Source: a bacterium
GTDB taxonomy: Bacteria > Krumholzibacteriota > Krumholzibacteriia > G020349025
Assembly: GCA_031362565.1 (NCBI GenBank)
Contig: JANLSU010000034.1
Coordinates: forward strand, 1-11,071
Length of the DNA: 11,071 bases
Direction of reading: 5' to 3'
Below, in pieces: positions 1 to 10,845 of the stretch. Each line of letters begins with the position of its first letter. Positions within the stretch are counted from its first letter, which is position 1. The notes under the pieces were generated by a model that saw only the letters and a program-made list of their open reading frames with translations, did no database searches and was not told the origin of the DNA. Both the position numbers and the translations under genes were made by a program.

Positions 1-37
1 CGGTGCTCCGTCCTCGACGCGCCAACGGGAATCGCAT
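1..37 (-). CDS. Probable N-terminus of a gene running off the left edge (MRFPLARRGRST...)
   Basis: Minus-strand ATG at 37-35 with GGAGG at 46-42. Frame is open to the window edge, and a sigma54 promoter lies upstream at 154-168. The Arg-rich start resembles a signal-peptide n-region, but only 12 codons are visible. Confidence 0.45.
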   Translation of the reverse strand, partial: MRFPLARRGRST

Positions 38-153
38 CCTGCCTCCGAAGGGCCGCATTCGTTGCGGCGCACATCCAGCGCGCCGCGTTCACCAACTCGC
101 TCTGTACCGGATCCAAGGTGTCCGGGGGGCGTACGAGATTCGGGAATGCATCG

Positions 154-168
154 GCAATCGGCGTGCCA
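154..168 (-). promoter_or_regulatory. sigma54 (RpoN) -24/-12 promoter, leftward
   Basis: Minus strand reads cTGGCAC-GCCGA-TTGC, matching TGGCAC-N5-TTGC with exact GG-N10-GC spacing. Predicted TSS is about 142, upstream of the SD and ATG at 46-35. Confidence 0.75.
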
Positions 169-432
169 GGGAAGGACTTGGCGTTGTTGGATGCGCCGCG
201 GACACATTGTGCGGTTTGGCGCGAAGCGGTACGAACACCGATGCTCTGGACACCGCCATTTGCAAGTGCCGCGTGCAACGGCCGCGCCGCGATGAGGTGC
301 AGCGCTCCCTCTCCGAACATACGTGCCACGCTTTCCGCACACTACGCGCGTGTTGCTCCGCGAACGGCGTCACCATTGCGCACCGTTTCGCGGGCGCGAT
401 GGCGATGGCGATGGAAACGCTGGTGCGTGGCG

Positions 433-554
433 GTCTTCGGAGGTGTTCGACCCCCGCCTGCTCAGACAGAACGGGCCGCGCCGCGCGCTTCGCGCGCAAT
501 ATGAGATGCGCGAGCCCGTTAACTCGCGGTCGGAGGTCCCAAACCTCCGAAGAC
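433..554. repeat. REP/REPIN-like inverted-repeat element
   Basis: Perfect 12-bp inverted repeat GTCTTCGGAGGT (433-444) / ACCTCCGAAGAC (543-554). Each arm also belongs to a local hairpin: CGGAGGT-gttcg-ACCCCCG (438-456) and TCGGAGGT-cccaa-ACCTCCGA (530-550). Internal hairpins at 483-497 and 509-528. Confidence 0.55.
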
Positions 555-564
555 GTGCTCCTAC

Positions 565-600
565 TCGGAATCGGAATCGGAATCGGAATCGGACTCGGCG
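565..600. repeat. Hexamer tandem repeat (TCGGAA)x4 plus two degenerate units
   Basis: TCGGAA four times at 565-588, followed by TCGGAC and TCGGCG. Confidence 0.95.
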
Positions 601-635
601 TGACACCTCGCTGACCACACTGTCATCGAGGCTGT

Positions 636-664
636 TTGACAGTCGTGGCGGGCTCTACTATCGT
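636..664 (+). promoter_or_regulatory. sigma70-type promoter for the deacetylase gene
   Basis: Perfect TTGACA (636-641), 17-nt spacer, TATCGT (659-664, TAnnnT). Predicted TSS falls at about 671-672, on the ATG. Confidence 0.6.
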
Positions 665-671
665 GCGGGGC

Positions 672-1949
672 ATGCGTACTTTGATCATCTTGCTTTTCGC
701 GCTCGGGGTTTTGAACACGGGCGTGTTTGCGGCGCCGGTGTTGCGGCCGGTTTTGGTTACGGTGGACGACTTGCCGATTGCTTCGCCGGGGAAACACCGG
801 GAGATGAAGGACCGCGACGAGATTACGGGCGGGTTGTTGGCGGTGCTCGAGAAGCATCACATTCGGGCGGTGGGGTTGGTCGTTTGGAACAATGTTTTGC
901 GGGCGCGGGACGAGGAGTTACTTGCGAGATGGTTACGGGCGGGGCATGAACTGGGGAACCACTCGTTTGGGCATCTTGACTACACGGCGACGGATTCCAC
1001 GGTTTATGTTGCGGATGTCGAGCATGGGCGGGCTGAATTGGCGGCGTTTTTGGGGCGCGATCAGCGGCAAGAGGCGGTGCGGTTTTTCCGGTTTCCCTAT
1101 TTGCGCGAGGGGGATACGCCCGAGAAGCTTGGGGCGATGCGGCGCTACTTGGATGCGAGCGGCCAGCGCAATTTGACGGTCACGATCGACGACGAGGATT
1201 GGTCGTACGAGGAAGGCTGGGTTGCGGCGCGCAAAAGCGGCGATCAAGCGGCGATGGACAGCATCGCCACCGACTATCACACCGCATTGCGAATGGAAAC
1301 CGCCGACCACGAATCGCGTGGTGACGATCTGTTCGGCCGGCCGGTGCCGCAAATCTTGCTCTTGCACGCGAACTCCGTCGGGGTCGCGCAGTGGGACCGG
1401 CTGTTCACGTGGCTCGAGCACACTGGGCATCGATTCGCGACCGCCGACGAGGTGCTGGCCGATTCGGCTTTTGCCGCGCCGCACGCCTATGTCGGGCGCT
1501 ACGGGTGCAGCCTGTGGCACCGGCTCTTGGACGGGCGGCGGCGTGCGAAGGCGCGGGCCGCGGTGCAGCAGCTTCTCGACGACTCGGCCGCGAATTGGAA
1601 CAAGGGCGACCTCGACGCCTTCTGCGCCGACTATGCCGAGGACGCGCTCTTCGTCTCACCGAGCGGCACGACGCGCGGCCGCCAAGCGGTGCTCGATCGC
1701 TACAAGAAGAAGTACGTCGACAAGACCGGCATGGGCACGCTGGGGTTCGAATTGATCGAGATCCGGCTGACGGCGGGCATGGAAGCCTCCGTGCTGGGCA
1801 GCGCCCGGCCGGCGCTCGTGCAGGGAGCCTCCGTGGCGGCGCGTTGGACGCTCACTTATCCAGATCACAACGCGACCGGCCTGACGTTGCTCGTGCTCCG
1901 GCCACGCGGCGGCGGCCGCTGGGAAATCCTGCAAGATTCGTCCATGTAA
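672..1949 (+). CDS. Exported polysaccharide deacetylase (CE4/NodB domain) fused to a C-terminal NTF2/SnoaL-like (DUF4440-type) domain
   Basis: Signal peptide MRTLIILLFALGVLNTGVFA. All five CE4 motifs are present: VTVDDLP, HELGNHSFGH, FFRFPY, DDEDW, ILLLH. The C-terminal ~130 aa (WNKGDLDAF..DYAEDA.F...RGRQAV..RY...WEILQD) is NTF2-like. ATG 672 preferred over TTG 636, which is the -35 box. Confidence 0.88.
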   Translation: MRTLIILLFALGVLNTGVFAAPVLRPVLVTVDDLPIASPGKHREMKDRDEITGGLLAVLEKHHIRAVGLVVWNNVLRARDEELLARWLRAGHELGNHSFGHLDYTATDSTVYVADVEHGRAELAAFLGRDQRQEAVRFFRFPYLREGDTPEKLGAMRRYLDASGQRNLTVTIDDEDWSYEEGWVAARKSGDQAAMDSIATDYHTALRMETADHESRGDDLFGRPVPQILLLHANSVGVAQWDRLFTWLEHTGHRFATADEVLADSAFAAPHAYVGRYGCSLWHRLLDGRRRAKARAAVQQLLDDSAANWNKGDLDAFCADYAEDALFVSPSGTTRGRQAVLDRYKKKYVDKTGMGTLGFELIEIRLTAGMEASVLGSARPALVQGASVAARWTLTYPDHNATGLTLLVLRPRGGGRWEILQDSSM

Positions 1950-1979
1950 CACCGCCTCGACCCATTGGAGCGGCTGGTT

Positions 1980-3026
1980 TTGAAATACGCGGTGACCGGC
2001 GCCACCGGTTTCATTGGTGGGCGCGTCGTGCAGCAGTTGCTCGCAGCCGGCCATACGGTACACGCTCTCGTGCGTGATCCGGACCGGGCCCGCGACCTCG
2101 AGCAGCGGGGCGTACGCCTCTTCAAGGGCGATGTCACGGATGCCCCGTCGCTCGCCGCACCCCTGCAGGGTGTCGACGGAATTTTCCATTTGGCCGCGTG
2201 GTACGAGATCGGTACGAAGAACCGGGCGCGCGCCGAGGACATCAACATTCAGGGCACGCGCAACGTGCTTACCACCATGCGCGATCTCGGCATTCCAAAA
2301 GGTGTGTACACGAGCAGCGTCGCGGTATTTTCGGATACGCACGGCGAGTTGATGGACGAGTCGTACCGGCGCGGTGGGCCCTGGCTCACGCTCTACGATC
2401 GGACCAAGTGGCGGGCCCACTACGAGATCGCCGAGCCGATGATCCGCGACGGCCTGCCGCTCGTCATCGCGCAACCGGGGCTCGTATACGGCCCCGGCGA
2501 CCAGAGCATCGTGCATCGCACGTTGCTGCAGTACTTGCGCGGCAAGCTGCATGTGGCGCCGCAGGCGACGGCGTATTGTTTCGGTTACGTCGACGATATC
2601 GCCACGGGCCACCTCCTGGCCATGCAGAAGGGCCGCGTCGGTGAGAGCTATATCTTCGCGGGTCCGCTGCACACGTTCATCGAACTGTTCGCGCTCTGCG
2701 AACGGCTGACCGGAGTCAAGCAACCACGCTTCAACCCATCACCTACTCTGATGAAGGTGCTGGCGCAAACCATGCGCGTCGCCGGAACCTTTGCATCGCT
2801 GCCCGAGAACTACCGGTACGAGAGCTTGCGCGTCATGGCGGGAGTGACCTACGGCGGCAACGACGCCAAGGCACGCCGCGAACTCGGCTGGACGTGCCGC
2901 GACATCGAAAGCGGCATGCGCCCGACGCTCACCGCCTACCTGCGCGAACTCGGCATGCCGTTGCCGCCGCAACTTCAGCCGGCGGCCGGGATCGACGTCG
3001 AACTAAATCGGCGCGGTGTCCGGTAG
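1980..3026 (+). CDS. NAD-dependent epimerase/dehydratase family protein (extended SDR, dihydroflavonol-reductase/HpnA-like)
   Basis: VTGATGFIGG Rossmann motif, FHLAA, YTSS, catalytic YDRTK (YxxxK), PGLVYGPGD. TTG start at 1980 with GGAG at 1967-1970. Confidence 0.9.
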   Translation: MKYAVTGATGFIGGRVVQQLLAAGHTVHALVRDPDRARDLEQRGVRLFKGDVTDAPSLAAPLQGVDGIFHLAAWYEIGTKNRARAEDINIQGTRNVLTTMRDLGIPKGVYTSSVAVFSDTHGELMDESYRRGGPWLTLYDRTKWRAHYEIAEPMIRDGLPLVIAQPGLVYGPGDQSIVHRTLLQYLRGKLHVAPQATAYCFGYVDDIATGHLLAMQKGRVGESYIFAGPLHTFIELFALCERLTGVKQPRFNPSPTLMKVLAQTMRVAGTFASLPENYRYESLRVMAGVTYGGNDAKARRELGWTCRDIESGMRPTLTAYLRELGMPLPPQLQPAAGIDVELNRRGVR

Positions 3027-3184
3027 CGTTCACTGGGGTTCCGCGATCGTGTACCGCATGGGGCAGCCGCGGCACGCCGAGACATCTTGGTGACCCACCC
3101 GTCCCACCCCGCGACGCAGGTTTTCATTCGTGTGTACAAGGGGTTGCGGCGCGCACCCCAGGCGGGAACGGGCTTGGCGCCGGA

Positions 3185-3200
3185 TGGCACCGCGGTTGCT
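3185..3200 (+). promoter_or_regulatory. sigma54 (RpoN) -24/-12 promoter with no downstream sense CDS
   Basis: TGGCAC-CGCGG-TTGCT, with GG at 3186-3187 and GC at 3198-3199 (10-nt spacing). Predicted TSS about 3211. Confidence 0.75.
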
Positions 3201-3210
3201 CTGCCCCTCT

Positions 3211-3283
3211 AGGCCGGGTTCTGCGGACGGGTGCGGCAAATCGTCCAGCGCTGCAGTGGTTGGCAGCAGCAGAACCCGGCTTT
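3211..3283 (+). ncRNA. Candidate sigma54-dependent structured small RNA (three-way junction)
   Basis: P1: GCCGGGTTCTGC (3213-3224) pairs perfectly with GCAGAACCCGGC (3269-3280), extendable by G-U and A-U. P2: GGACG (3225-3229) / CGTCC (3242-3246). P3: GCTGC (3250-3254) / GCAGC (3263-3267). Begins at the predicted sigma54 TSS and ends in TTT. Confidence 0.5.
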
Positions 3284-3297
3284 CCCCACCCATGGCT

Positions 3298-4122
3298 TTA
3301 CTTCTCGAGCGCCACGGTCACCATCGGAATCAGCCGGTGTCCGAGTGACCGGCGGATTCCGAGCGGCAGGCACGCGATGCCGGCCTCGACGGCGCACAGA
3401 AGCCCAAGCGGCAACGCGAGGCGCTGCCCGCGCCCGTTCCAATAGGCGTGCACCTGTTCGAAGCCCACCGCGCGCGCTTCCGCCGCCACCTCTCTATAGG
3501 ACCATTCCCGCAGATGAAAACCCTGCGGCTCGTCCGAGAACCACCGTGAAATATCGTGCGGCCCGGTCCAGCGCTCCGGCGTCCGCAGGACGTAACGCCC
3601 GCCCCGCCGCAGCATGCGATGCACGAGTTCGAGGTGATGGCGCGCATCGTCCGGATGCAAGTGCTCCAAGAATTGTTCACTGAAGACCAGGTCGACGCTG
3701 CCTGCATCCAAGTCGAGCGTCCAGCCGTCGTACAGCACCAGGGCGAAGTTCGCGGGCGGCGTGACATCGGCCGGAATCTGGGCGGCGATTTCGACGGCCC
3801 GCGCGCGCCGCACGTGCCGTGCAACCTCAGACGCAAGAACACAAGTACCGGCGCCGAACTCGACGTATTCCGTGTCGCGCCCGAGATAGGGACGCAGAAG
3901 ATGCATGAGGCGCTGCACCTGGCGCCGCTCGGCATCCGGATCGCGATGCGCCGTGAGACGCGGATGGTCGGGGACGCGCGCGAAGAGTTCGTCATACATG
4001 GTCGCGTAGATGCGGGCCCGGCCGGCCGGCGTGGGGGCGGCTTTGAGCTGCGTGGCCAGCGCCCGTTCGACTTCATAGTGATTGCGAAGCTGGGCGCGGC
4101 TGCGCTCAGGGGCCGGTGTCAT
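3298..4122 (-). CDS. Class I SAM-dependent methyltransferase (Methyltransf_11-like)
   Basis: Motif I YVEFGAGTC, plus DLVFSEQFLEHLHP and LRRGGRYVLRTP. ATG at 4122 with GGAGAGGT at 4138-4131. The longer ORF start at 4446 overlaps the upstream gene. Confidence 0.88.
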   Translation of the reverse strand: MTPAPERSRAQLRNHYEVERALATQLKAAPTPAGRARIYATMYDELFARVPDHPRLTAHRDPDAERRQVQRLMHLLRPYLGRDTEYVEFGAGTCVLASEVARHVRRARAVEIAAQIPADVTPPANFALVLYDGWTLDLDAGSVDLVFSEQFLEHLHPDDARHHLELVHRMLRRGGRYVLRTPERWTGPHDISRWFSDEPQGFHLREWSYREVAAEARAVGFEQVHAYWNGRGQRLALPLGLLCAVEAGIACLPLGIRRSLGHRLIPMVTVALEK

Positions 4123-5242
4123 AGGCGCGCACCTCTCCGGCGCTCCCCGTCTCCGGGGCGGTCTCGAAACCTTCCAAGAGCCATGTCCCAACAAACCGCA
4201 AGCCGCGGCCTGTCCCGATGGCAACACCACATTCCACACCATCCGGCCCGAGCACGACCAACTCGACCTGCGCCTCGCGCCGGCGATGATACGCGACGGC
4301 GCCGGCGTCATTGACCACTGCTTCCAGAATGACGGACGGCTCGTCATGCGACCACACGGCGCGGGGCTGCAACATCGGGTCACGGTCGGCGTCGAGGCGC
4401 AAGCGACCCGGCTGCACCGCCAAAACGAACCCGCCGGAAGGTGCAACAGACCTCCGGTCCCAACCCGCCGGAAGGGCCGTGGTGCGCAGCGTCCCGTGTT
4501 CGAGATCGAGTGCGATGCGCAGCTTTTCTCCGCGCCGGGACGTCACGGGCCAGTCGACCCAGGGCCCGCCCTCGAGAACGCGCGCCGCACCGAACAATGC
4601 CTTTGGAACGATGTGTTCCTGCACCACGTGCCCGGTGTAATCCAGAACCACGATGCGGTTCAGAGCGGACTCGTCGCCACGAATCGCCACGGCGCGTTCG
4701 CGGCCATCTGCAAAGGCCAGGTTCTGCAAGAGAAACGGCAGGGTTGCGACAGGCGTGCTGCCGGGCAGCGCCAGAATCGATGTCGCCGCGGCAGTGACGA
4801 AGACGATTCGCCCACTCGGCGGCCGCATGATGTGAGCCCGCAGAGCCCGGGTGCCGACGTCGGCGTGCACCATCTGCACGATTCTTTCGGAAGCGCCACG
4901 AGCGGCGCGCGCCGCATCCGCGTATGCGAGCACCGCGACTGGCGTGTCGAAGCCGCCGGCCATGTGTACGCCGGTGAAGGGGCCATAGGCGCGCACCCAA
5001 GCACCTGCTGAATCGACGTCCGCCACCCACCGGCGCGAACCGCCGAGCGGCAAGGCCAGGCGTGGGAATGCGGGCGTGGAAGCGGCTGGATGGGTGCGAA
5101 TAGTCAGCGCGAGAGCGCGATCCGTTCGCCGTTCGACTTGCAGAAGCCAGGCGGGTTGAAGGGTTGCGGTGTGGGCGGCGGCGGCGTTGAAAGTGACGAG
5201 GGCGCACGCGGCGGCGAGAACGCGGCGGTGGATTGCGATCAC
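4106..5242 (-). CDS. Hypothetical exported protein
   Basis: Fills the gap between two confident same-strand genes. The GTG start overlaps the HD gene's TGA (GTGA, 5242-5239). N-terminus MIAIHRRVLAAACALVTFNAAAA looks like a Sec signal peptide. No family recognised. Confidence 0.65.
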   Translation of the reverse strand: MIAIHRRVLAAACALVTFNAAAAHTATLQPAWLLQVERRTDRALALTIRTHPAASTPAFPRLALPLGGSRRWVADVDSAGAWVRAYGPFTGVHMAGGFDTPVAVLAYADAARAARGASERIVQMVHADVGTRALRAHIMRPPSGRIVFVTAAATSILALPGSTPVATLPFLLQNLAFADGRERAVAIRGDESALNRIVVLDYTGHVVQEHIVPKALFGAARVLEGGPWVDWPVTSRRGEKLRIALDLEHGTLRTTALPAGWDRRSVAPSGGFVLAVQPGRLRLDADRDPMLQPRAVWSHDEPSVILEAVVNDAGAVAYHRRREAQVELVVLGPDGVECGVAIGTGRGLRFVGTWLLEGFETAPETGSAGEVRAYDTGP

Positions 5243-5874
5243 GTCGGGTCGCCGGATGCCGGCGGCGAAGCCGCCGGCGACTTCGCCCACACCCACCAGT
5301 CGTCGCGGTCGCCCCACCACCAGTCACTCGAATGCGCCTCGAGAATCGCCGCGGCAAGCTGCTGCGAAACGAGCTCTTTCAATCTCTTGAGCGCGAACGG
5401 AATCCAGTCCTTGGCCTGTGGATTGCCGCGGTCCTGCTCTTCCTTCAGGACCAGCAACAATTCCAACTGGTCGCAATCGTGCGCCAGGCGCGACTCGAGA
5501 GTCTCGCGACCGGCGAATTCCGCCAACAGCGATTCGATCTCCGGCCCGAACGGCAGCGGCGCCGCCAGCTCGCGAATCGCCTTCTCTTCATCCACCGTCA
5601 CGTACTTCTTGTTTTCGTAATTGAGGTCCCCGGTCCGCGCCTCCGGCAGGTCGTGCAGCAGACACATGAGAACGAGCTTGTGACGATCGACGCCATCCAC
5701 CATGCGTCCAAGCGTGAAGGCGAGATAGGTCGCCCGCAACATGTGCTCGGCAACCGAGGCCTGCGTGTTGCCCAAGAACGGCATGCCGCTGCGCGGGGTT
5801 CGCCGCAACATCCCGACTTCGAATAGAAAGTTGGTGACGGCCGCCAGGGCGCGTGGATCGTCGTTCGCCGTCAA
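5239..5874 (-). CDS. HD domain hydrolase (HD_3 / YfbR-HDDC2-like 5'-deoxynucleotidase family)
   Basis: LRRTPRSG, SVAEH, CLLHDLPEARTGD and AHDCDQLE motifs are typical of this HD subfamily. The TTG start overlaps the upstream TGA (TTGA, 5874-5871). Confidence 0.88.
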   Translation of the reverse strand: MTANDDPRALAAVTNFLFEVGMLRRTPRSGMPFLGNTQASVAEHMLRATYLAFTLGRMVDGVDRHKLVLMCLLHDLPEARTGDLNYENKKYVTVDEEKAIRELAAPLPFGPEIESLLAEFAGRETLESRLAHDCDQLELLLVLKEEQDRGNPQAKDWIPFALKRLKELVSQQLAAAILEAHSSDWWWGDRDDWWVWAKSPAASPPASGDPT

Positions 5875-6842
5875 TGCGCCGGTCCGCTCGCCGGTGCGGA
5901 ATCGGCCACGCACCTGAATCCGATGTTGCCCCAGCGGGCGCCGGGCCCGGCATGTTCGCGGTTCGCACAGCGCAGGAAACGCGCGAAACTATTGAAGGAC
6001 CCACCACGATAGGTCCGTTGGCGATCGTCCTTCAGTTCTTCAGGCGTGAAGAACTGCAGGCGATAGTCCTCGCCGTCCTTGGGCGTAACGGCGGCCGCGG
6101 TGGTCGCATCGAAGGCGGGCGACGTCGACGCATCGCGTGACATGGCGGCGGCCTTCGCCCCGGCGCTGCCGCCGAACTCGCTCGGCAGAAGTGCATCCGG
6201 GCGTGGATACGGTGCGTACGCGCTCGCGGTCCACTCGCCAACATTGCCCGACATGTCGAGTACCCCGTACGGCGTCGCGCCGAGCGAATTCGATCCCACG
6301 GGCAGCAGGTACCGGTCGTTGTTCGCATGATCGATCTCGAAGTCCTCGCCCCATGGAAAACGCCGCCCGTCGGTACCACGTGCCGCCTTTTCCCACTCGG
6401 CCTCGGTCGGCAGACGCTTCTTCGCCCAGCGCGCATACGCCATCGCGTCCCACCAACAGACATCGGTCACCGGCATGAAATCGGCGCCCTCGGGATACTG
6501 GTGCTCCCGGCCCCACGCGGCAGGCGCGGGCCAACCGGTCGCCTCGAGGAACTGCGTGTACTTCAAGTTGCTGACTTCGATCTGTTCGATGTAGAAAGTC
6601 GGCAGGAATACGGTGCGCTGCGGAAACTCGTCTTCATCAGCCCAGTGATCGGCCTTCGTGCTGCCGAATTTGAATTCACCGGCGGGCACCGGTACCATTC
6701 CATCCTGCTCATCGGCGAGCGCCCCAAGGTCGGCTTTGGGTGGGTCCGTTGCCGGCGGCGCGAACGCGGTGCCGGCCAGTACGCCGATTGCGAGCACGGC
6801 GATCCCCACACTTCCGCCACGAACCACTGTGCGGTAATGCAT
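5871..6842 (-). CDS. Formylglycine-generating-enzyme (FGE-sulfatase / SUMF1-fold) family protein, exported or membrane-anchored
   Basis: MVPVPAGEFKFGS, EVSN..Y..F, PVTDVCWWDA.AY, RLPTEAEWEKAARG, FPWG, PYGVLDMSGNVGEW, RGGSF, IGFRC. Hydrophobic N-terminus. ATG 6842 with GGAGG at 6853-6849. Confidence 0.92.
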   Translation of the reverse strand: MHYRTVVRGGSVGIAVLAIGVLAGTAFAPPATDPPKADLGALADEQDGMVPVPAGEFKFGSTKADHWADEDEFPQRTVFLPTFYIEQIEVSNLKYTQFLEATGWPAPAAWGREHQYPEGADFMPVTDVCWWDAMAYARWAKKRLPTEAEWEKAARGTDGRRFPWGEDFEIDHANNDRYLLPVGSNSLGATPYGVLDMSGNVGEWTASAYAPYPRPDALLPSEFGGSAGAKAAAMSRDASTSPAFDATTAAAVTPKDGEDYRLQFFTPEELKDDRQRTYRGGSFNSFARFLRCANREHAGPGARWGNIGFRCVADSAPASGPAH

Positions 6843-6894
6843 CGAGTTCCTCCGCATCGTTCGAGCCGGGGGGATGGGTGCGCCCAATGGGCCC

Positions 6895-6923
6895 AATATA
6901 GAGCCCACGGCGGGGGGCGGCAA
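6895..6923 (-). promoter_or_regulatory. Internal sigma70-type promoter upstream of the FGE-family gene
   Basis: Minus strand TTGCCG (6923-6918), 17-nt spacer, TATATT (6900-6895), in the only intergenic gap of the minus-strand block. Confidence 0.6.
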
Positions 6924-6953
6924 GCATCACCGGACCCAACCCACCGAAGAGGA

Positions 6954-7928
6954 TCAGCGCAGAAACACGTCGGGGGGCGAGATGCCGAGGATCGAAGGAT
7001 CCAGGGATTCGACGATGCGGGTCGCGGGGCTCGTGTCGAGGTCGATCCATTCCTCGCCGGGGACGGAGAGCCCGCCGGAGTCGCGCAGCACGCGCACCAG
7101 CGGCCGGTCGAGTTTGGCGATCGCCGGATTCGGCCGGACCACGACACCGATCTCGCCTTCGGCGAGACGCACCGTTGTCCCCGGCGGGTAGATCCCGAGG
7201 AGCTGGGCGAAGCGTTGCAGGAGGGTGGGCTCGAAACGCGCCCCGGTGGCCTGCAGCAAGAACGCGACGACAAGGTCTGGACTGCCGGCCAGCCCCGGGC
7301 GGGCGGTCAGATCATCGTAAGCATCCGCAATGCGAACGATACCGAGACTCGGATCTTCCGAGCCGGGAGCGATCGTCCGCACGGGGCCGCGGAACTCTTC
7401 CTGATGTTCAACGGCGATCCAGGCCGCATGTGCCACGCGCTCGATCGGGCCCGTCCGCAGAATCGCGGTGACGCCGGCGAGGCCATGCTCTTCGGTTTCC
7501 ACACTCGCATCGCGCCCCAGATCGTGGAGCAATCCCGCCAACGCGATCGGTACGCACGAGGTGCGGTCGATTCCCACCGCCAAGGCCAGCGACACCGAGT
7601 GCACCATGACATTCACTGCGTGGGTCTGCATGAAGCGCTGGGCGGGCGGCACCGCAAGCGATTTGACCGTCGTCAGGCCAACGAGTGAAGCAGCGTCATC
7701 GCGCATGGCATCGACAGTGCGCTGTGCAATGCGTTCCAGTGCGTCGAGATCGATGCCGGCACCACGTTGCAGTGCCGATGCCGCGCTCTCGTATGCCGTG
7801 ACGGCTTGAACATAGAGGCGCCGCGCTGCAGCGCGCTTGCCTGCCGAAGGCGCCGGGCTCGAATTCGATACGACGCTCGTTGTCCGGGCGAGCGTCAGCG
7901 CGCCGGTTGCCGAGGTTCCCTCAAGCAT
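6954..7928 (-). CDS. HD-GYP-like protein with degenerate motifs
   Basis: HAVNV, LAGLLHDLG, EHQE, IVRIADAYDDLTARP, and the C-terminal LGIYPPGTTVRL..GEIGVV extension seen in HD-GYP proteins. The GYP loop is absent. ATG 7928 overlaps the HEAT gene stop by 8 nt. Confidence 0.82.
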   Translation of the reverse strand: MLEGTSATGALTLARTTSVVSNSSPAPSAGKRAAARRLYVQAVTAYESAASALQRGAGIDLDALERIAQRTVDAMRDDAASLVGLTTVKSLAVPPAQRFMQTHAVNVMVHSVSLALAVGIDRTSCVPIALAGLLHDLGRDASVETEEHGLAGVTAILRTGPIERVAHAAWIAVEHQEEFRGPVRTIAPGSEDPSLGIVRIADAYDDLTARPGLAGSPDLVVAFLLQATGARFEPTLLQRFAQLLGIYPPGTTVRLAEGEIGVVVRPNPAIAKLDRPLVRVLRDSGGLSVPGEEWIDLDTSPATRIVESLDPSILGISPPDVFLR

Positions 7929-9735
7929 CGTCGGCCTCCAAGCCGAAGCCCTGATCCTCGCGCGGCGCCTTGCCGATTCGAGCCGGCTGGCACCAGCCGT
8001 CCTCGTCGGTGAAGTTGGGGACTGCACGGCGCCCCTCGAACGACGCGAGCGCCAGCTCACAGGCCTCCCGCAATTTCCGGTCACGCCCCGCGGCGTACTC
8101 GCGCAGGACCTTCGCAGCTTCGGGCCGCCCGGTTTCGCCGAGAGCGATTGCGGCGCCGCGCCGCAACTCGGATTGCCAACCGACCCGCAAGAGTTGGCGC
8201 TGCGTGAGCTGCTCCAACAGTTCGGTGAACGTCGCGTCGTCCGCGAGCCGGCCGTAGGTGCGGAAGAAATCGTCGCGCTCCTCGGCAGTGCGGGTTCGAA
8301 ACGTCCGGTCTTCGAAGAGAATGGCGCGCAACCAGGGCAGCGCCTGACGATCGCCCGCGGTTGCGAGCGCCCAGACCGCCGACTGGCGCACTCGCACATC
8401 CGCGTCCTCCAGCATCGCACCGAGCAATTCGGTGGACTGCGCGGCCGGGACGCGGCCGAGCGCACGCGCCGTCTCGATGCGAACGCGTTCGTCCTCGTGA
8501 CGCGTCCACGGTGCCAAGAGCGGCAAGACGCCGGGGTCGCCGATGCGTCCTAGAACGTAGGCGACGTTGCGGGCCACGAACCACGGCCGGCCCGCGGCCT
8601 GGGTGATGAGAACGCGCGGATCACCGGCCGACACGGCGGCGAGGACTTGGCACACCAAGCGGCGCGCCTCCATCGTCGCGAGCTTTTCGAGCAACAGGCC
8701 AAGCGGTTCGACGGCGCCCGGCAGCGTTGCCAGTACATTTCGCACCGCGGTTTTCTCTTCGACGTCGGCATTGGGATCGTCGAGCACCGCGCCGAGCGCG
8801 AGTGCGTTGGTCTCCGTGCACAGCCGCTGCAGCGATGGTTCGATCCACGCCGGTGTTTCTTGGCCGGCGACACCGCCCGCCCGCAGGCGCACGAGTGCAT
8901 CGCGCAGCCATGGCACGCGCCGCTGCTCGACAAGTGTTTCCACGACATCGCCGAGCACCTTGGCGGCGCTGGCACGCACCACCGGATCCGGGTCGCGTTC
9001 GGCACACATGGCGATGCGACGAATGCAGCGCGACGCCGCTTCTTCCGACGTCACGACTTGCAGGCGATGGATCCAGGAGCGTCCGTCGGCGCCGATCGCG
9101 ATCAAGTGGCGCCAGTCCGTCGATTGCGTCGCAGTGGCCTGTCCAGGCCCCGCATCGAAAAGCCGTACGAGTTCCGCATGCTCGCCGGTGAGGGCGGCCG
9201 GGACCACCGCCGCGGCGCGCAGGCCGGCCGTTGCTGCGCCGGCGGTCGCCATTTCGTCCGCCGTCCGTACGACGACATGATCGAAGTCGATGCGCCACAA
9301 ACGCAGCGCGGGTGACGCCTGCGGCGTTTCGCCGTCCTGAAACAGCGCGATCAGGTGTTCGATTTCGCGGCGCTCGACGCCGCACTTGAAGAGCAATTCG
9401 CGGATGCCGGCGGCCGCGAGACGCGCCGCCACCTCGGATCCGGCGGTCAGCCGGGTGCGATGCGCCCGGAATCCGTCTGGCGCCACCTGAATGGCGAGGA
9501 AGGAGTGCTCATCGAGCCATGCTTGTAGGGTCCGGGTGAGCGTGACCGCCGCCGCTTCGGCGCGCACGCTGCTGTATTTTTCTTCCGCGGCGCGTTCGAA
9601 CGCGCTGCAGACTTTGGACGCGACGCTCACTTCAGCGGCGGCGACACCACCAGGCGATGGCGCCAAATCGTCCGCCCCCGGTCCGGTCGTACCGGCGCGT
9701 GGAGGCTGATTTGTGGGCTCGCTCACCAGCGACAT
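7921..9735 (-). CDS. HEAT-repeat domain protein
   Basis: Repeated HEAT/PBS-like units: DPDPVVRASAAKVLG, PWFVARNVAYVLGRIGD, HEDERVRIETARALGRV, DADVRVRQSAVWALA, SELRRGAAIALGETG, DRKLREACELAL. 604-aa ORF downstream of a sigma54 promoter. Confidence 0.88.
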   Translation of the reverse strand: MSLVSEPTNQPPRAGTTGPGADDLAPSPGGVAAAEVSVASKVCSAFERAAEEKYSSVRAEAAAVTLTRTLQAWLDEHSFLAIQVAPDGFRAHRTRLTAGSEVAARLAAAGIRELLFKCGVERREIEHLIALFQDGETPQASPALRLWRIDFDHVVVRTADEMATAGAATAGLRAAAVVPAALTGEHAELVRLFDAGPGQATATQSTDWRHLIAIGADGRSWIHRLQVVTSEEAASRCIRRIAMCAERDPDPVVRASAAKVLGDVVETLVEQRRVPWLRDALVRLRAGGVAGQETPAWIEPSLQRLCTETNALALGAVLDDPNADVEEKTAVRNVLATLPGAVEPLGLLLEKLATMEARRLVCQVLAAVSAGDPRVLITQAAGRPWFVARNVAYVLGRIGDPGVLPLLAPWTRHEDERVRIETARALGRVPAAQSTELLGAMLEDADVRVRQSAVWALATAGDRQALPWLRAILFEDRTFRTRTAEERDDFFRTYGRLADDATFTELLEQLTQRQLLRVGWQSELRRGAAIALGETGRPEAAKVLREYAAGRDRKLREACELALASFEGRRAVPNFTDEDGWCQPARIGKAPREDQGFGLEADDA

Positions 9736-9822
9736 GCTCGTCCCGACACGGCTGCAGGCCTACGATCACCGCGAGCTGCCGTTGGCAACCCGCGCGACAT
9801 TTGCCGAGCGCGCATGGAAAAC

Positions 9823-9838
9823 AGCAAGGACGGTGCCA
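9823..9838 (-). promoter_or_regulatory. sigma54 (RpoN) -24/-12 promoter for the HEAT/HD-GYP pair
   Basis: Minus strand TGGCAC-CGTCC-TTGCT. Predicted TSS about 9812, about 77 nt upstream of ATG 9735. Confidence 0.78.
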
Positions 9839-9880
9839 TCGGGCGCGATGCGGAACGGCGGGCGCGTTCCGGACACGGGG

Positions 9881-9910
9881 TTGCCGGACACGCCGCGGCT
9901 CCGCTATGAT
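9881..9910 (+). promoter_or_regulatory. sigma70-type promoter for lipA
   Basis: TTGCCG (9881-9886), 18-nt spacer, TATGAT (9905-9910), about 45 nt upstream of the lipA ATG. Confidence 0.55.
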
Positions 9911-9954
9911 TCTGCGGCTTTGCTGCGGCACCCACCACGATCCTGCAGGTGTGC

Positions 9955-10845
9955 ATGTCCCTCGCGACGGATCCGAAACCCGACAACGCGCGCCCCCGCC
10001 GTCCCGAATGGCTGAAGGTGACGCTGCCGCACGGCGAGAACTACGGCCTGATCAAGTCGCTCATCGACCAGCACCGTCTGCATACGGTGTGTGAAGAGGC
10101 GCGCTGTCCGAACGTCGGCGACTGCTGGAGCGCCGGCACTGCGACGTTCATGATTCTGGGCGATACCTGCACGCGGAGCTGCGGCTTTTGTGCCGTCAAG
10201 ACCGGCCGTCCGGCGGCGCTCGATCTCGACGAACCACGCCGTCTTGCACAGGCGATCAAGGTCCTGAATCTGACTCACGCCGTCATCACCAGCGTCAACC
10301 GCGACGAACTCCCGGACGGCGGCGCCGCCATCTTCGCGGAATGCATCCGCGAAGTTCGGCGTGAACTCCCCGCCTGCCGGGTCGAAGTCTTGATTCCGGA
10401 TTTTCGCGGTGAGTGGAGTGCCTTGCAAACCGTGATCGATGCACGCCCCGACATTGTGAATCACAACACCGAAACCGTGCCGCGCCTGTACTCGGTCGTG
10501 CGGCCGCAGGCGAAGTACGAACGTTCGCTGGAACTGCTGCGGCGTGCCAAGGATCAGGGCGCATTCACCAAGACCGGCATCATGATCGGCATCGGTGAAC
10601 GCGACGAAGAAGTCTACGAAGTCATGCGCGATCTACGCACCGTCGAGTGCGACGTGCTGACTATCGGCCAGTACCTGCAGCCATCAAAACAGCATCTCCC
10701 GGTCGACCGTTTCGTACCGCCCGCCACCTTCGCCGACATGCGCACAGCCGCCCTCGCCATGGGCTTCCGTTACTGCGAATCCGGCCCCCTAGTCCGCAGC
10801 TCCTACCACGCCGAACGCCAAGTAGCCGGCCCCCCAAACGCCTAA
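9955..10845 (+). CDS. lipA: Lipoyl synthase
   Basis: RPEWLK, auxiliary-cluster motif [12 protein letters not shown] (CX4CX5C), ATFMILG, radical-[11 protein letters not shown] (CX3CX2C), [19 protein letters not shown], and C-terminal VRSSYHA. ATG 9955 chosen; GTG 9949 is an alternative. Confidence 0.98.

Follow-up and report, generated by a model that had tools for sequence, protein, structure and literature searches.

This analysis concerns an 11,071-nucleotide (nt) stretch of bacterial DNA (contig JANLSU010000034.1 of assembly GCA_031362565.1, phylum Krumholzibacteriota; hereafter the window) and, within it, a gap between two convergent genes that holds a perfect sigma-54 promoter element followed by a structured element at 3211-3283. 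Our preferred reading, to which we give a probability of roughly 0.45 from the sequence evidence, is that the sigma-54 element drives an RNA of ~73 nt that would be exactly antisense to the hairpin at the neighbouring operon's 3' end.

Gene setting

The gap comprises 271 nt (3027-3297), from the stop codon of a plus-strand gene for an NAD-dependent epimerase/dehydratase (1965-3026, stop 3024-3026) to that of a methyltransferase gene on the minus strand (3298-3300). The methyltransferase gene is the last in a minus-strand operon of six tightly packed genes (3298-9735), which encode, from 9735 down, a HEAT-repeat protein, an HD protein, an FGE-sulfatase-like protein, an HD_3 protein, an unknown protein of 404 amino acids (aa) and the methyltransferase. 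This operon has a perfect sigma-54 promoter of its own (9824-9838, minus strand; predicted start ~9812, which leaves a leader of 77 nt ahead of the ATG at 9735), and the third perfect sigma-54 site of the contig (154-168, minus strand) points off the left contig end. The stem of the structured element lies 17 nt past the end of the operon and 185 nt from the epimerase stop, so that the minus strand of the element corresponds to the 3' hairpin of the operon mRNA. The next plus-strand gene after the element, for lipoyl synthase, begins at 9949, 6.7 kb on.

No sense coding sequence lies downstream of the plus-strand promoter element, as the initial annotation had stated: the plus-strand open reading frames (ORFs) over 3231-5011 are shadow frames of the minus-strand genes, judging by codon-position GC content and by their Arg/Gly/His-rich translations, and the minus frame of the same region gives a protein-like translation. 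We also rejected the gap itself as protein-coding; an 87-aa minus-strand ORF that fills it has no Pfam match and no homologue. The length of the convergent gap was dropped as a line of evidence, the ORF mask being too incomplete for such a comparison.

Several other features of the window deserve mention. The methyltransferase ORF (3298-4446, minus strand, 382 codons) is probably too long: most of its relatives align from about residue 100-115, its true start likely lies near 4110, and the upstream gene (4106-5320) overlaps the ORF as annotated. That upstream gene encodes the 404-aa protein, a protein-like ORF on the minus strand with a hydrophobic N-terminal stretch and without a Pfam family. 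At the left end of the window (1-615), ~600 nt hold no coding-like ORF and a GGAATC hexamer is repeated in tandem, especially at 566-600; coverage by the sequencing run rises about ten-fold at 371-740, and the contigs of that run break at 489/503. One contig from a DNA run spans 503-10305 with a single differing letter and the element unvaried, and two other runs gave short pieces elsewhere, a set that is uninformative on variation. A contig of one run (X1) continues for about 5.4 kb to the left of position 1. A look for RNA runs that contain 1500-6500 of the window found none.

A perfect sigma-54 element whose predicted start meets a long stem

The -24/-12 element on the plus strand at 3185-3200, TGGCAC-CGCGG-TTGCT (TGGCACCGCGGTTGCT), lies in non-coding DNA and consists of TGGCAC (3185-3190), the spacer CGCGG and TTGCT (3196-3200), with the -12 C at 3199. 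It matches all 10/10 core positions, plus TTGCT, and its GG and GC dinucleotides stand 10 nt apart. The predicted transcription start (+1), A3211, coincides with the first paired base of the stem; both the presence of this element in the convergent gap and the meeting of start and 5' stem boundary are therefore as the initial annotation described them. The genome carries the machinery that such a promoter would use, namely rpoN (Sigma54_DBD profile match, 213 bits) and 26 matches to Sigma54_activat, 22 of which are strong enhancer-binding-protein genes (E <= 1e-61). A scan of 2800-3600 for sigma-70 promoters and canonical terminators found none.

Perfect sites of the form TGGCAC-N5-TTGC are rare, with 16 on both strands of the 5.4-Mb genome. 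Nine of the 16 stand 14-79 nt upstream of a coding-like ORF; of the other seven, two fall within long coding-like ORFs, a third is in a repeat tract, a fourth points off this contig, and three, the site at 3185 among them, are orphans with no gene close by. With a rough mask that assigns 12% of the genome to non-coding DNA, and with 120 permuted motifs as the null, 8/16 perfect sites proved non-coding versus a mean of 2.0 (standard deviation 2.1) for the permuted motifs, an enrichment of about four-fold. About two perfect sites are thus expected in non-coding DNA by chance, roughly equal to the number of orphans seen, so that on count alone the 3185 site could be a chance match.

This chance expectation is one foundation of a serious, if tentative, alternative to our preferred reading: that the element is a terminator only, either a bidirectional terminator or a 3'-end stabiliser of the convergent operons, with a sigma-54 match that is fortuitous or silent and yields no RNA product. 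Orphan sites of this kind have been described in other bacteria. According to the part of the source considered here, a chromatin immunoprecipitation sequencing study of E. coli gave 135 sigma-54 sites, 8 of them intergenic and directed away from any nearby gene, and the sigma-54 holoenzyme binds E. coli sites, orphans among them, in an inactive state (PMC4591121); orphan sites are likewise discussed for Salmonella in the portion of PMC3844500 used here.

Clustering and geometry argue against a site that is fortuitous. Three of the 16 perfect sites share this 11,071-bp contig (168, minus strand; 3185, plus strand; 9838, minus strand), and by an arithmetic estimate the probability that two or more other sites lie within 6.7 kb of a random position is ~7e-4. 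By a similar estimate, a chance start would fall within 2 nt of the stem base in ~2% of placements in the gap. Among 342 sigma-54-like sites with at least 9/10 matches, the one at 3185 is the only perfect one with a stem of at least 9 base pairs (bp) that begins within 2 nt of +1. A candidate for a second genomic example, a 9/10-match site at a stem (C109:3072), was rejected, being antisense inside a probable gene and without similarity.

The stem is built on a perfect 12-bp inverted repeat, with its left arm (GCCGGGTTCTGC) at 3213-3224 and its right arm (GCAGAACCCGGC) at 3269-3280. The pairs G3212-U3281 and A3211-U3282 lengthen it to 14 bp, giving a closing stem of 3211-3224 with 3269-3282 that encloses a 44-nt interior and is followed by U3283. 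Directly after the perfect stem, and on the plus strand only, stands a TTT tail (3281-3283). The interior contains two potential plus-strand hairpins, one at 3225-3246 (GGACGG/TCGTCC, 6 bp including one G-U, 10-nt loop) and one at 3250-3267 (GCTGC/GCAGC, 5 bp, 8-nt loop), and the element as a whole, the predicted ~73-nt RNA, holds four GCAG units that are mostly base-paired.

Stem, hairpins, GCAG units and tail all lie where the initial annotation placed them; its further claim of a branched three-way fold stood only in part. RNAfold does return that fold for the plus strand at -42.5 kcal/mol (z -3.0, with 1/200 shuffles as good), compared with -39.1 kcal/mol for the minus strand (z -1.9, 7/200), but the inner hairpins are no better than those of shuffled sequence, the 44-nt interior alone giving z -0.72 on the plus strand (44/200 shuffles as good) and z -1.54 on the minus strand (20/200). 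It is therefore the closing stem only that carries the 'three-way junction', and the interior folds as would any GC-rich 44-mer. In this respect the observation is partly confirmed: it is real, and it was over-read where the inner hairpins are concerned.

The 12-bp repeat itself is unlikely to have arisen by chance in this 271-nt gap, yet it is no rare object genome-wide. Inverted repeats of at least 12 bp with 3-80 nt between the arms number 198. In 68 of these the arms are less than 10 nt apart, and each 10-nt bin beyond holds 9-31, compared with ~10 per bin expected by chance from a composition estimate. Some inverted repeats of at least 12 bp lie at contig ends (for example C6 2-105, C53 65-168, C16 1-49, C42 7-98, C96 1-98 and C39 28805-28904); several of these have 68-80 nt between the arms, several are extended, and they may represent an assembly-breaking repeated element.

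Upstream boxes and links between the promoters of the contig

A 12-mer, ACAAGGGGTTGC (3136-3147, plus strand), precedes the -24 element by about 45 nt and is a candidate activator site. Its second and last genomic copy (ACACGGGGTTGC, 9873-9884, plus strand) lies ~46 nt upstream of the facing promoter of the operon, and the pattern ACA[AC]GGGGTTGC occurs in the genome only at 3136 and 9873. As a putative activator box of both facing promoters, the 12-mer is statistically weak and only suggestive: the box is inverted relative to the two promoters, and a position-matched k-mer common to two sites is found in 7.8% (8-mer) and 2.5% (9-mer) of 57,630 pairs of sigma-54-like sites.

A different box links the other two promoters. 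Those at 9838 and 168 each have two GTGTCC boxes in the same orientation and at most 85 nt upstream (-53/-38 and -85/-37, respectively), and GTGTCC occurs within 200 nt of 0/13 perfect sites outside this contig, suggesting that these two promoters probably have a common activator. We rejected co-regulation of the 3185 promoter through GTGTCC, of which it has one copy only, at -169 and at chance level, and we also rejected the 3185 and 9838 promoters as paralogues, as their flank identity (16/35) is equalled by two of 120 pairs. What the 3185 promoter does gain is indirect support from the clustering of sites, from the plus-strand T tail and from the common upstream 12-mer.

Two side observations concern sigma-54 sites. 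The segment GGGGCAGCCGCGG (3060-3072) is able to pair with CCGCGG..CTGCCCC (3191-3208), which covers the promoter spacer and the -12 region. This long-range pairing is part of the minimum-energy structure predicted for the 3' region of the epimerase gene, and it was dropped because the whole region folds no better than shuffles. In another genome of the same class (G189:C357), a perfect sigma-54 promoter (L072, 1503-1517) stands directly before an ORF that, as translated here, has a GDSGTGKE Walker-A-like motif and may be an autoregulated activator gene.

Terminator-like stems of the genome

How genes end in this genome bears directly on the terminator-only alternative. We surveyed 1216 gene ends, each with 90 nt or more of downstream DNA that holds no confident gene, for stems within 120 nt, and a perfect stem of at least 10 bp followed 125/1216 of them compared with 12/1216 intragenic controls. 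The loops of those 125 stems measured 12 nt or less in 90 cases and at least 20 nt in 19, and the longest stems among those listed had 12-15 bp, loops of 4-6 nt and short T-rich tails. A TTT stood within 6 nt of the stem on the gene strand in 26/125 and on the opposite strand in 12/125 (genome background, 2.2%). Long T runs (at least 6 T in 7 nt) were barely enriched, at 69/2534 gene ends versus 31/2534 controls. Overall, a terminator-like structure in this genome has a long, perfect, GC-rich stem and a very short T tail.

The element between the epimerase and methyltransferase genes agrees with this class in stem length and tail and disagrees in its 44-nt interior. Its closing stem of 12-14 GC-rich bp, 17 nt after the last stop of the operon, resembles the genome's terminator stems and is explicable without a promoter. 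No other strong hairpin was found between the epimerase stop and the element, so the plus-strand epimerase unit would also end there; bidirectional terminators do occur between convergent genes. Against a terminator-only role, the interior is long for this class, and the TTT lies on the plus strand, the wrong one for the adjacent operon. The lack of TTT on the minus strand excludes nothing, since only 26 of the 125 stems carry one on the gene strand. Position and type of the stem thus make a terminator role likely without implying that it is the sole role, and we consider it fairly safe to describe the stem as a terminator-type element common to two convergent units. The initial annotation would have taken a stem acting only as the 3' terminator of the minus-strand operon as refuting its RNA; location and type go half way towards this.

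How well the stem stops transcription also bears on a distinctly improbable alternative, in which the RNA made would be long: most polymerases would pass the UUU and run through the operon toward its promoter, acting as antisense RNA or by transcriptional interference, and the stem would serve as a 5' stabiliser or attenuator. The tail is indeed merely UUU, the perfect sigma-54 promoters at 3185 (plus strand) and 9838 (minus strand) face each other across the operon, and, in the passages considered here, PMC4591121 (E. coli) and PMC3844500 (Salmonella) propose antisense roles for sigma-54 sites of opposite orientation. However, this genome stops transcription with GC-rich stems of 12-14 bp that carry a T tail, and lipoyl synthase, the next plus-strand gene, is distant.

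Known RNA families, repeats and trans-acting partners

A search of Rfam 15 over 2900-3500, at E-values up to 10, gave two sub-threshold matches, neither of them to the element; one, to mir-132 at 3277-3328, reaches only its last bases. At gathering scores the whole window gave 0 Rfam matches, and a search of it for transfer RNA and transfer-messenger RNA found none. The absence of an Rfam match to the element fits the earlier statement that it belongs to no recognised family and proves nothing. We tried and rejected an attC site, a retron, a hammerhead-type ribozyme and an ANTAR dual-hairpin, for all of which core motifs or partner genes are missing and Rfam is blank. A dispersed repeat of the repetitive extragenic palindrome or miniature inverted-repeat transposable element (REP/MITE-like) type was likewise rejected because the element is single-copy, its sole match in the genome being itself, both by DNA search and by a covariance model that combines promoter and structure (R1); the initial annotation had named such a repeat among the findings that would refute it.

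That annotation had proposed a protein sponge or base-pairing regulator, which we take to mean a trans-acting small RNA (sRNA), in the second case with distant mRNAs as targets. For such an RNA the promoter and the compact fold argue just as they do for our preferred reading, a CsrA gene is present in the genome, and sigma-54-dependent sRNAs such as glmY and glmZ are known from the part of PMC3844500 drawn on here. A protein sponge nonetheless finds no support in the sequence: the loops GUGCGGCAAA and AGUGGUUG contain no GGA, the sole GGA of the element sits in a stem, the GCAG units are for the most part taken up in base pairing, and no gene for Hfq turned up in the genome, whose completeness is rated at 100%. 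As for base pairing with distant mRNAs, the RNA would have, its tail aside, no single-stranded 5' or 3' region and no free seed. Duplexes of its loops with non-self targets in the window reach only -32.8 and -28.5 kcal/mol, energies that, in the distribution from 4000 random genomic windows, fall between the 1% and 0.1% tails and are unremarkable for the ~1470 windows scanned. The searched genomes contain no paralogues or homologues of the element. We therefore regard a trans-acting role as scarcely probable, although we cannot tell from these results whether the initial interpretation as a whole is right.

Search for relatives

The host genome is the only member of its genus in the collection, and the closest genomes belong to other genera. 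The searches covered ~208 class or phylum genomes overall, with 40 relatives for DNA comparison and 100 relatives and 150 phylum genomes for R1. A DNA search with the 271-nt gap in the 40 relatives, including all 6 same-family genomes (64-100% complete), gave no credible match; of two short matches with E ~0.005, the one that overlaps the element falls inside an ORF. Model R1 gave no match beyond the element itself in its own genome, the 100 relatives and the 150 phylum genomes. The best non-self R1 match in the 100 relatives scored 24.4 bits (E 0.012 per genome), which is chance level, and the -24/-12 element is kept in 0/4 of the R1 alignments shown.

The methyltransferase has matches in 46/208 class genomes (its own included), the others at no more than 49% identity, and in 0/6 same-family genomes. 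A metagenome scan with the methyltransferase returned 21 loci; in the closest of them, at 62% identity, the next gene follows directly without the element. Relatives of the epimerase appeared in genome contigs at 6 loci, with 53-61% identity, in unrelated archaeal and bacterial metagenome-assembled genomes, and the 404-aa operon protein had no match in the 207 other class genomes. Synteny of the flanking genes was not found in the closest genomes. By these sequence comparisons the locus is lineage-specific. Without homologues there is therefore no covariation and no sign of selection on the RNA.

Discussion

Our preferred reading joins the promoter, the stem and the operon into a single arrangement. 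An activator-dependent sigma-54 promoter at 3185-3200 would start a transcript at A3211, the first base of the stem; polymerase would copy the 44-nt interior and then the right arm, allowing the 5' and 3' ends of the RNA to pair. A fraction of polymerases would halt at the UUU, giving a closed RNA of ~73 nt, and the remainder would read on to produce RNA antisense to the methyltransferase gene. The closed RNA would be the exact complement of the 3'-terminal hairpin in the six-gene operon mRNA and could act in cis, with loop-loop pairing to the operon 3' end altering the processing or stability of that mRNA. What the sequence shows is the promoter match with its rarity and clustering, the stem, the tail and their geometry, together with genes for RpoN and enhancer-binding proteins; the firing of the promoter, the end point of the RNA and any effect on the operon are inferences. 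Taken by itself, the proposition that the 3185 site is a working promoter whose transcript would be essentially stem plus interior has, in our judgement, about even odds.

Two considerations favour action in cis on the operon 3' end, as the more economical assumption, over a sponge or trans-acting regulator. Within the window the loops find a strong duplex partner only in the element's own opposite strand, and the hairpin to which the RNA would be complementary belongs to an operon that is itself sigma-54-driven. A more elaborate possibility is that one activator fires both facing promoters and that the ~73-nt RNA pairs with the operon mRNA 3' end and sets its lifetime, a self-contained 'terminator-antisense' feedback device in an uncultured bacterium of the FCB group, which we think unlikely.

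Several of the results above count against an RNA product. The number of orphan sites is close to that expected by chance, the stem has the position and form of a terminator, the interior of the element folds at chance level, neither upstream box firmly ties the 3185 promoter to the facing one, and no relative of the gap, of the R1 structure or of the arrangement beside the methyltransferase gene appeared in the searched sets. To these may be added that a UUU tail after a long-range stem is a weak terminator.

Qrr of Vibrio, CrcZ/NrsZ of Pseudomonas and Pxr of Myxococcus are small structured sigma-54-dependent RNAs, several of which begin with a 5' stem-loop; their single-stranded seed or protein-binding motifs are conserved, and the RNAs as a whole are conserved across genera. 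The present element gave no match to whichever such families Rfam includes. The GlmY and GlmZ RNAs are 150-200 nt long with single-stranded regions, in contrast to a predicted RNA of ~73 nt that would be fully closed. Their genes in Enterobacteriaceae encode sRNAs that depend on sigma-54 and GlrR, as reported in the section of PMC3844500 used here. The present locus is like them in having a -24/-12 promoter before a short non-coding gene without an ORF, in a genome rich in enhancer-binding proteins, and unlike them in having no Rfam match, defined activator sites or known homologues.

In CopA/CopT and RNAI/RNAII, cis-antisense RNAs act through loop-loop kissing, and their targets are plasmid 5' leaders or primers. 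The predicted RNA and its partner would similarly be perfectly complementary hairpins able to meet by their loops, although the partner here would come from the chromosome, as the 3' end of an operon mRNA. The locus also resembles the intergenic 'outside antisense' sigma-54 sites of E. coli, as characterised in the portion of PMC4591121 considered here, in being consensus-like, intergenic and directed away from nearby gene starts. It differs from them in that the 3185 site is a perfect consensus whose predicted start abuts a long T-tailed stem, a product for which that portion of PMC4591121 gives no counterpart. With the genome's own long-stem terminators the element has in common its stem, its short T tail and its distance from the stop, and it departs from them in its interior and in a tail that is absent from the strand of the adjacent operon and present on the other. 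By design the element is nearest to sRNA genes under sigma-54 control, of which glmY and glmZ are examples, and structurally it is nearest to the terminators of its own genome; if real, it would be a further case of the sigma-54-dependent sRNA kind, outside the described families.

The general impact of the finding is modest because it concerns a single locus without relatives. If the promoter is silent, the locus serves as a warning that in GC-rich genomes an apparent sRNA gene may be no more than a terminator with a perfect -24/-12 match next to it. If the promoter fires, it would provide a sigma-54-dependent RNA from a phylum without cultured members. Should our preferred reading be true, the design would be unusually compact, with the whole RNA being the antisense of a terminator, and orphan sigma-54 sites at the ends of operons could be more than silent binding sites.

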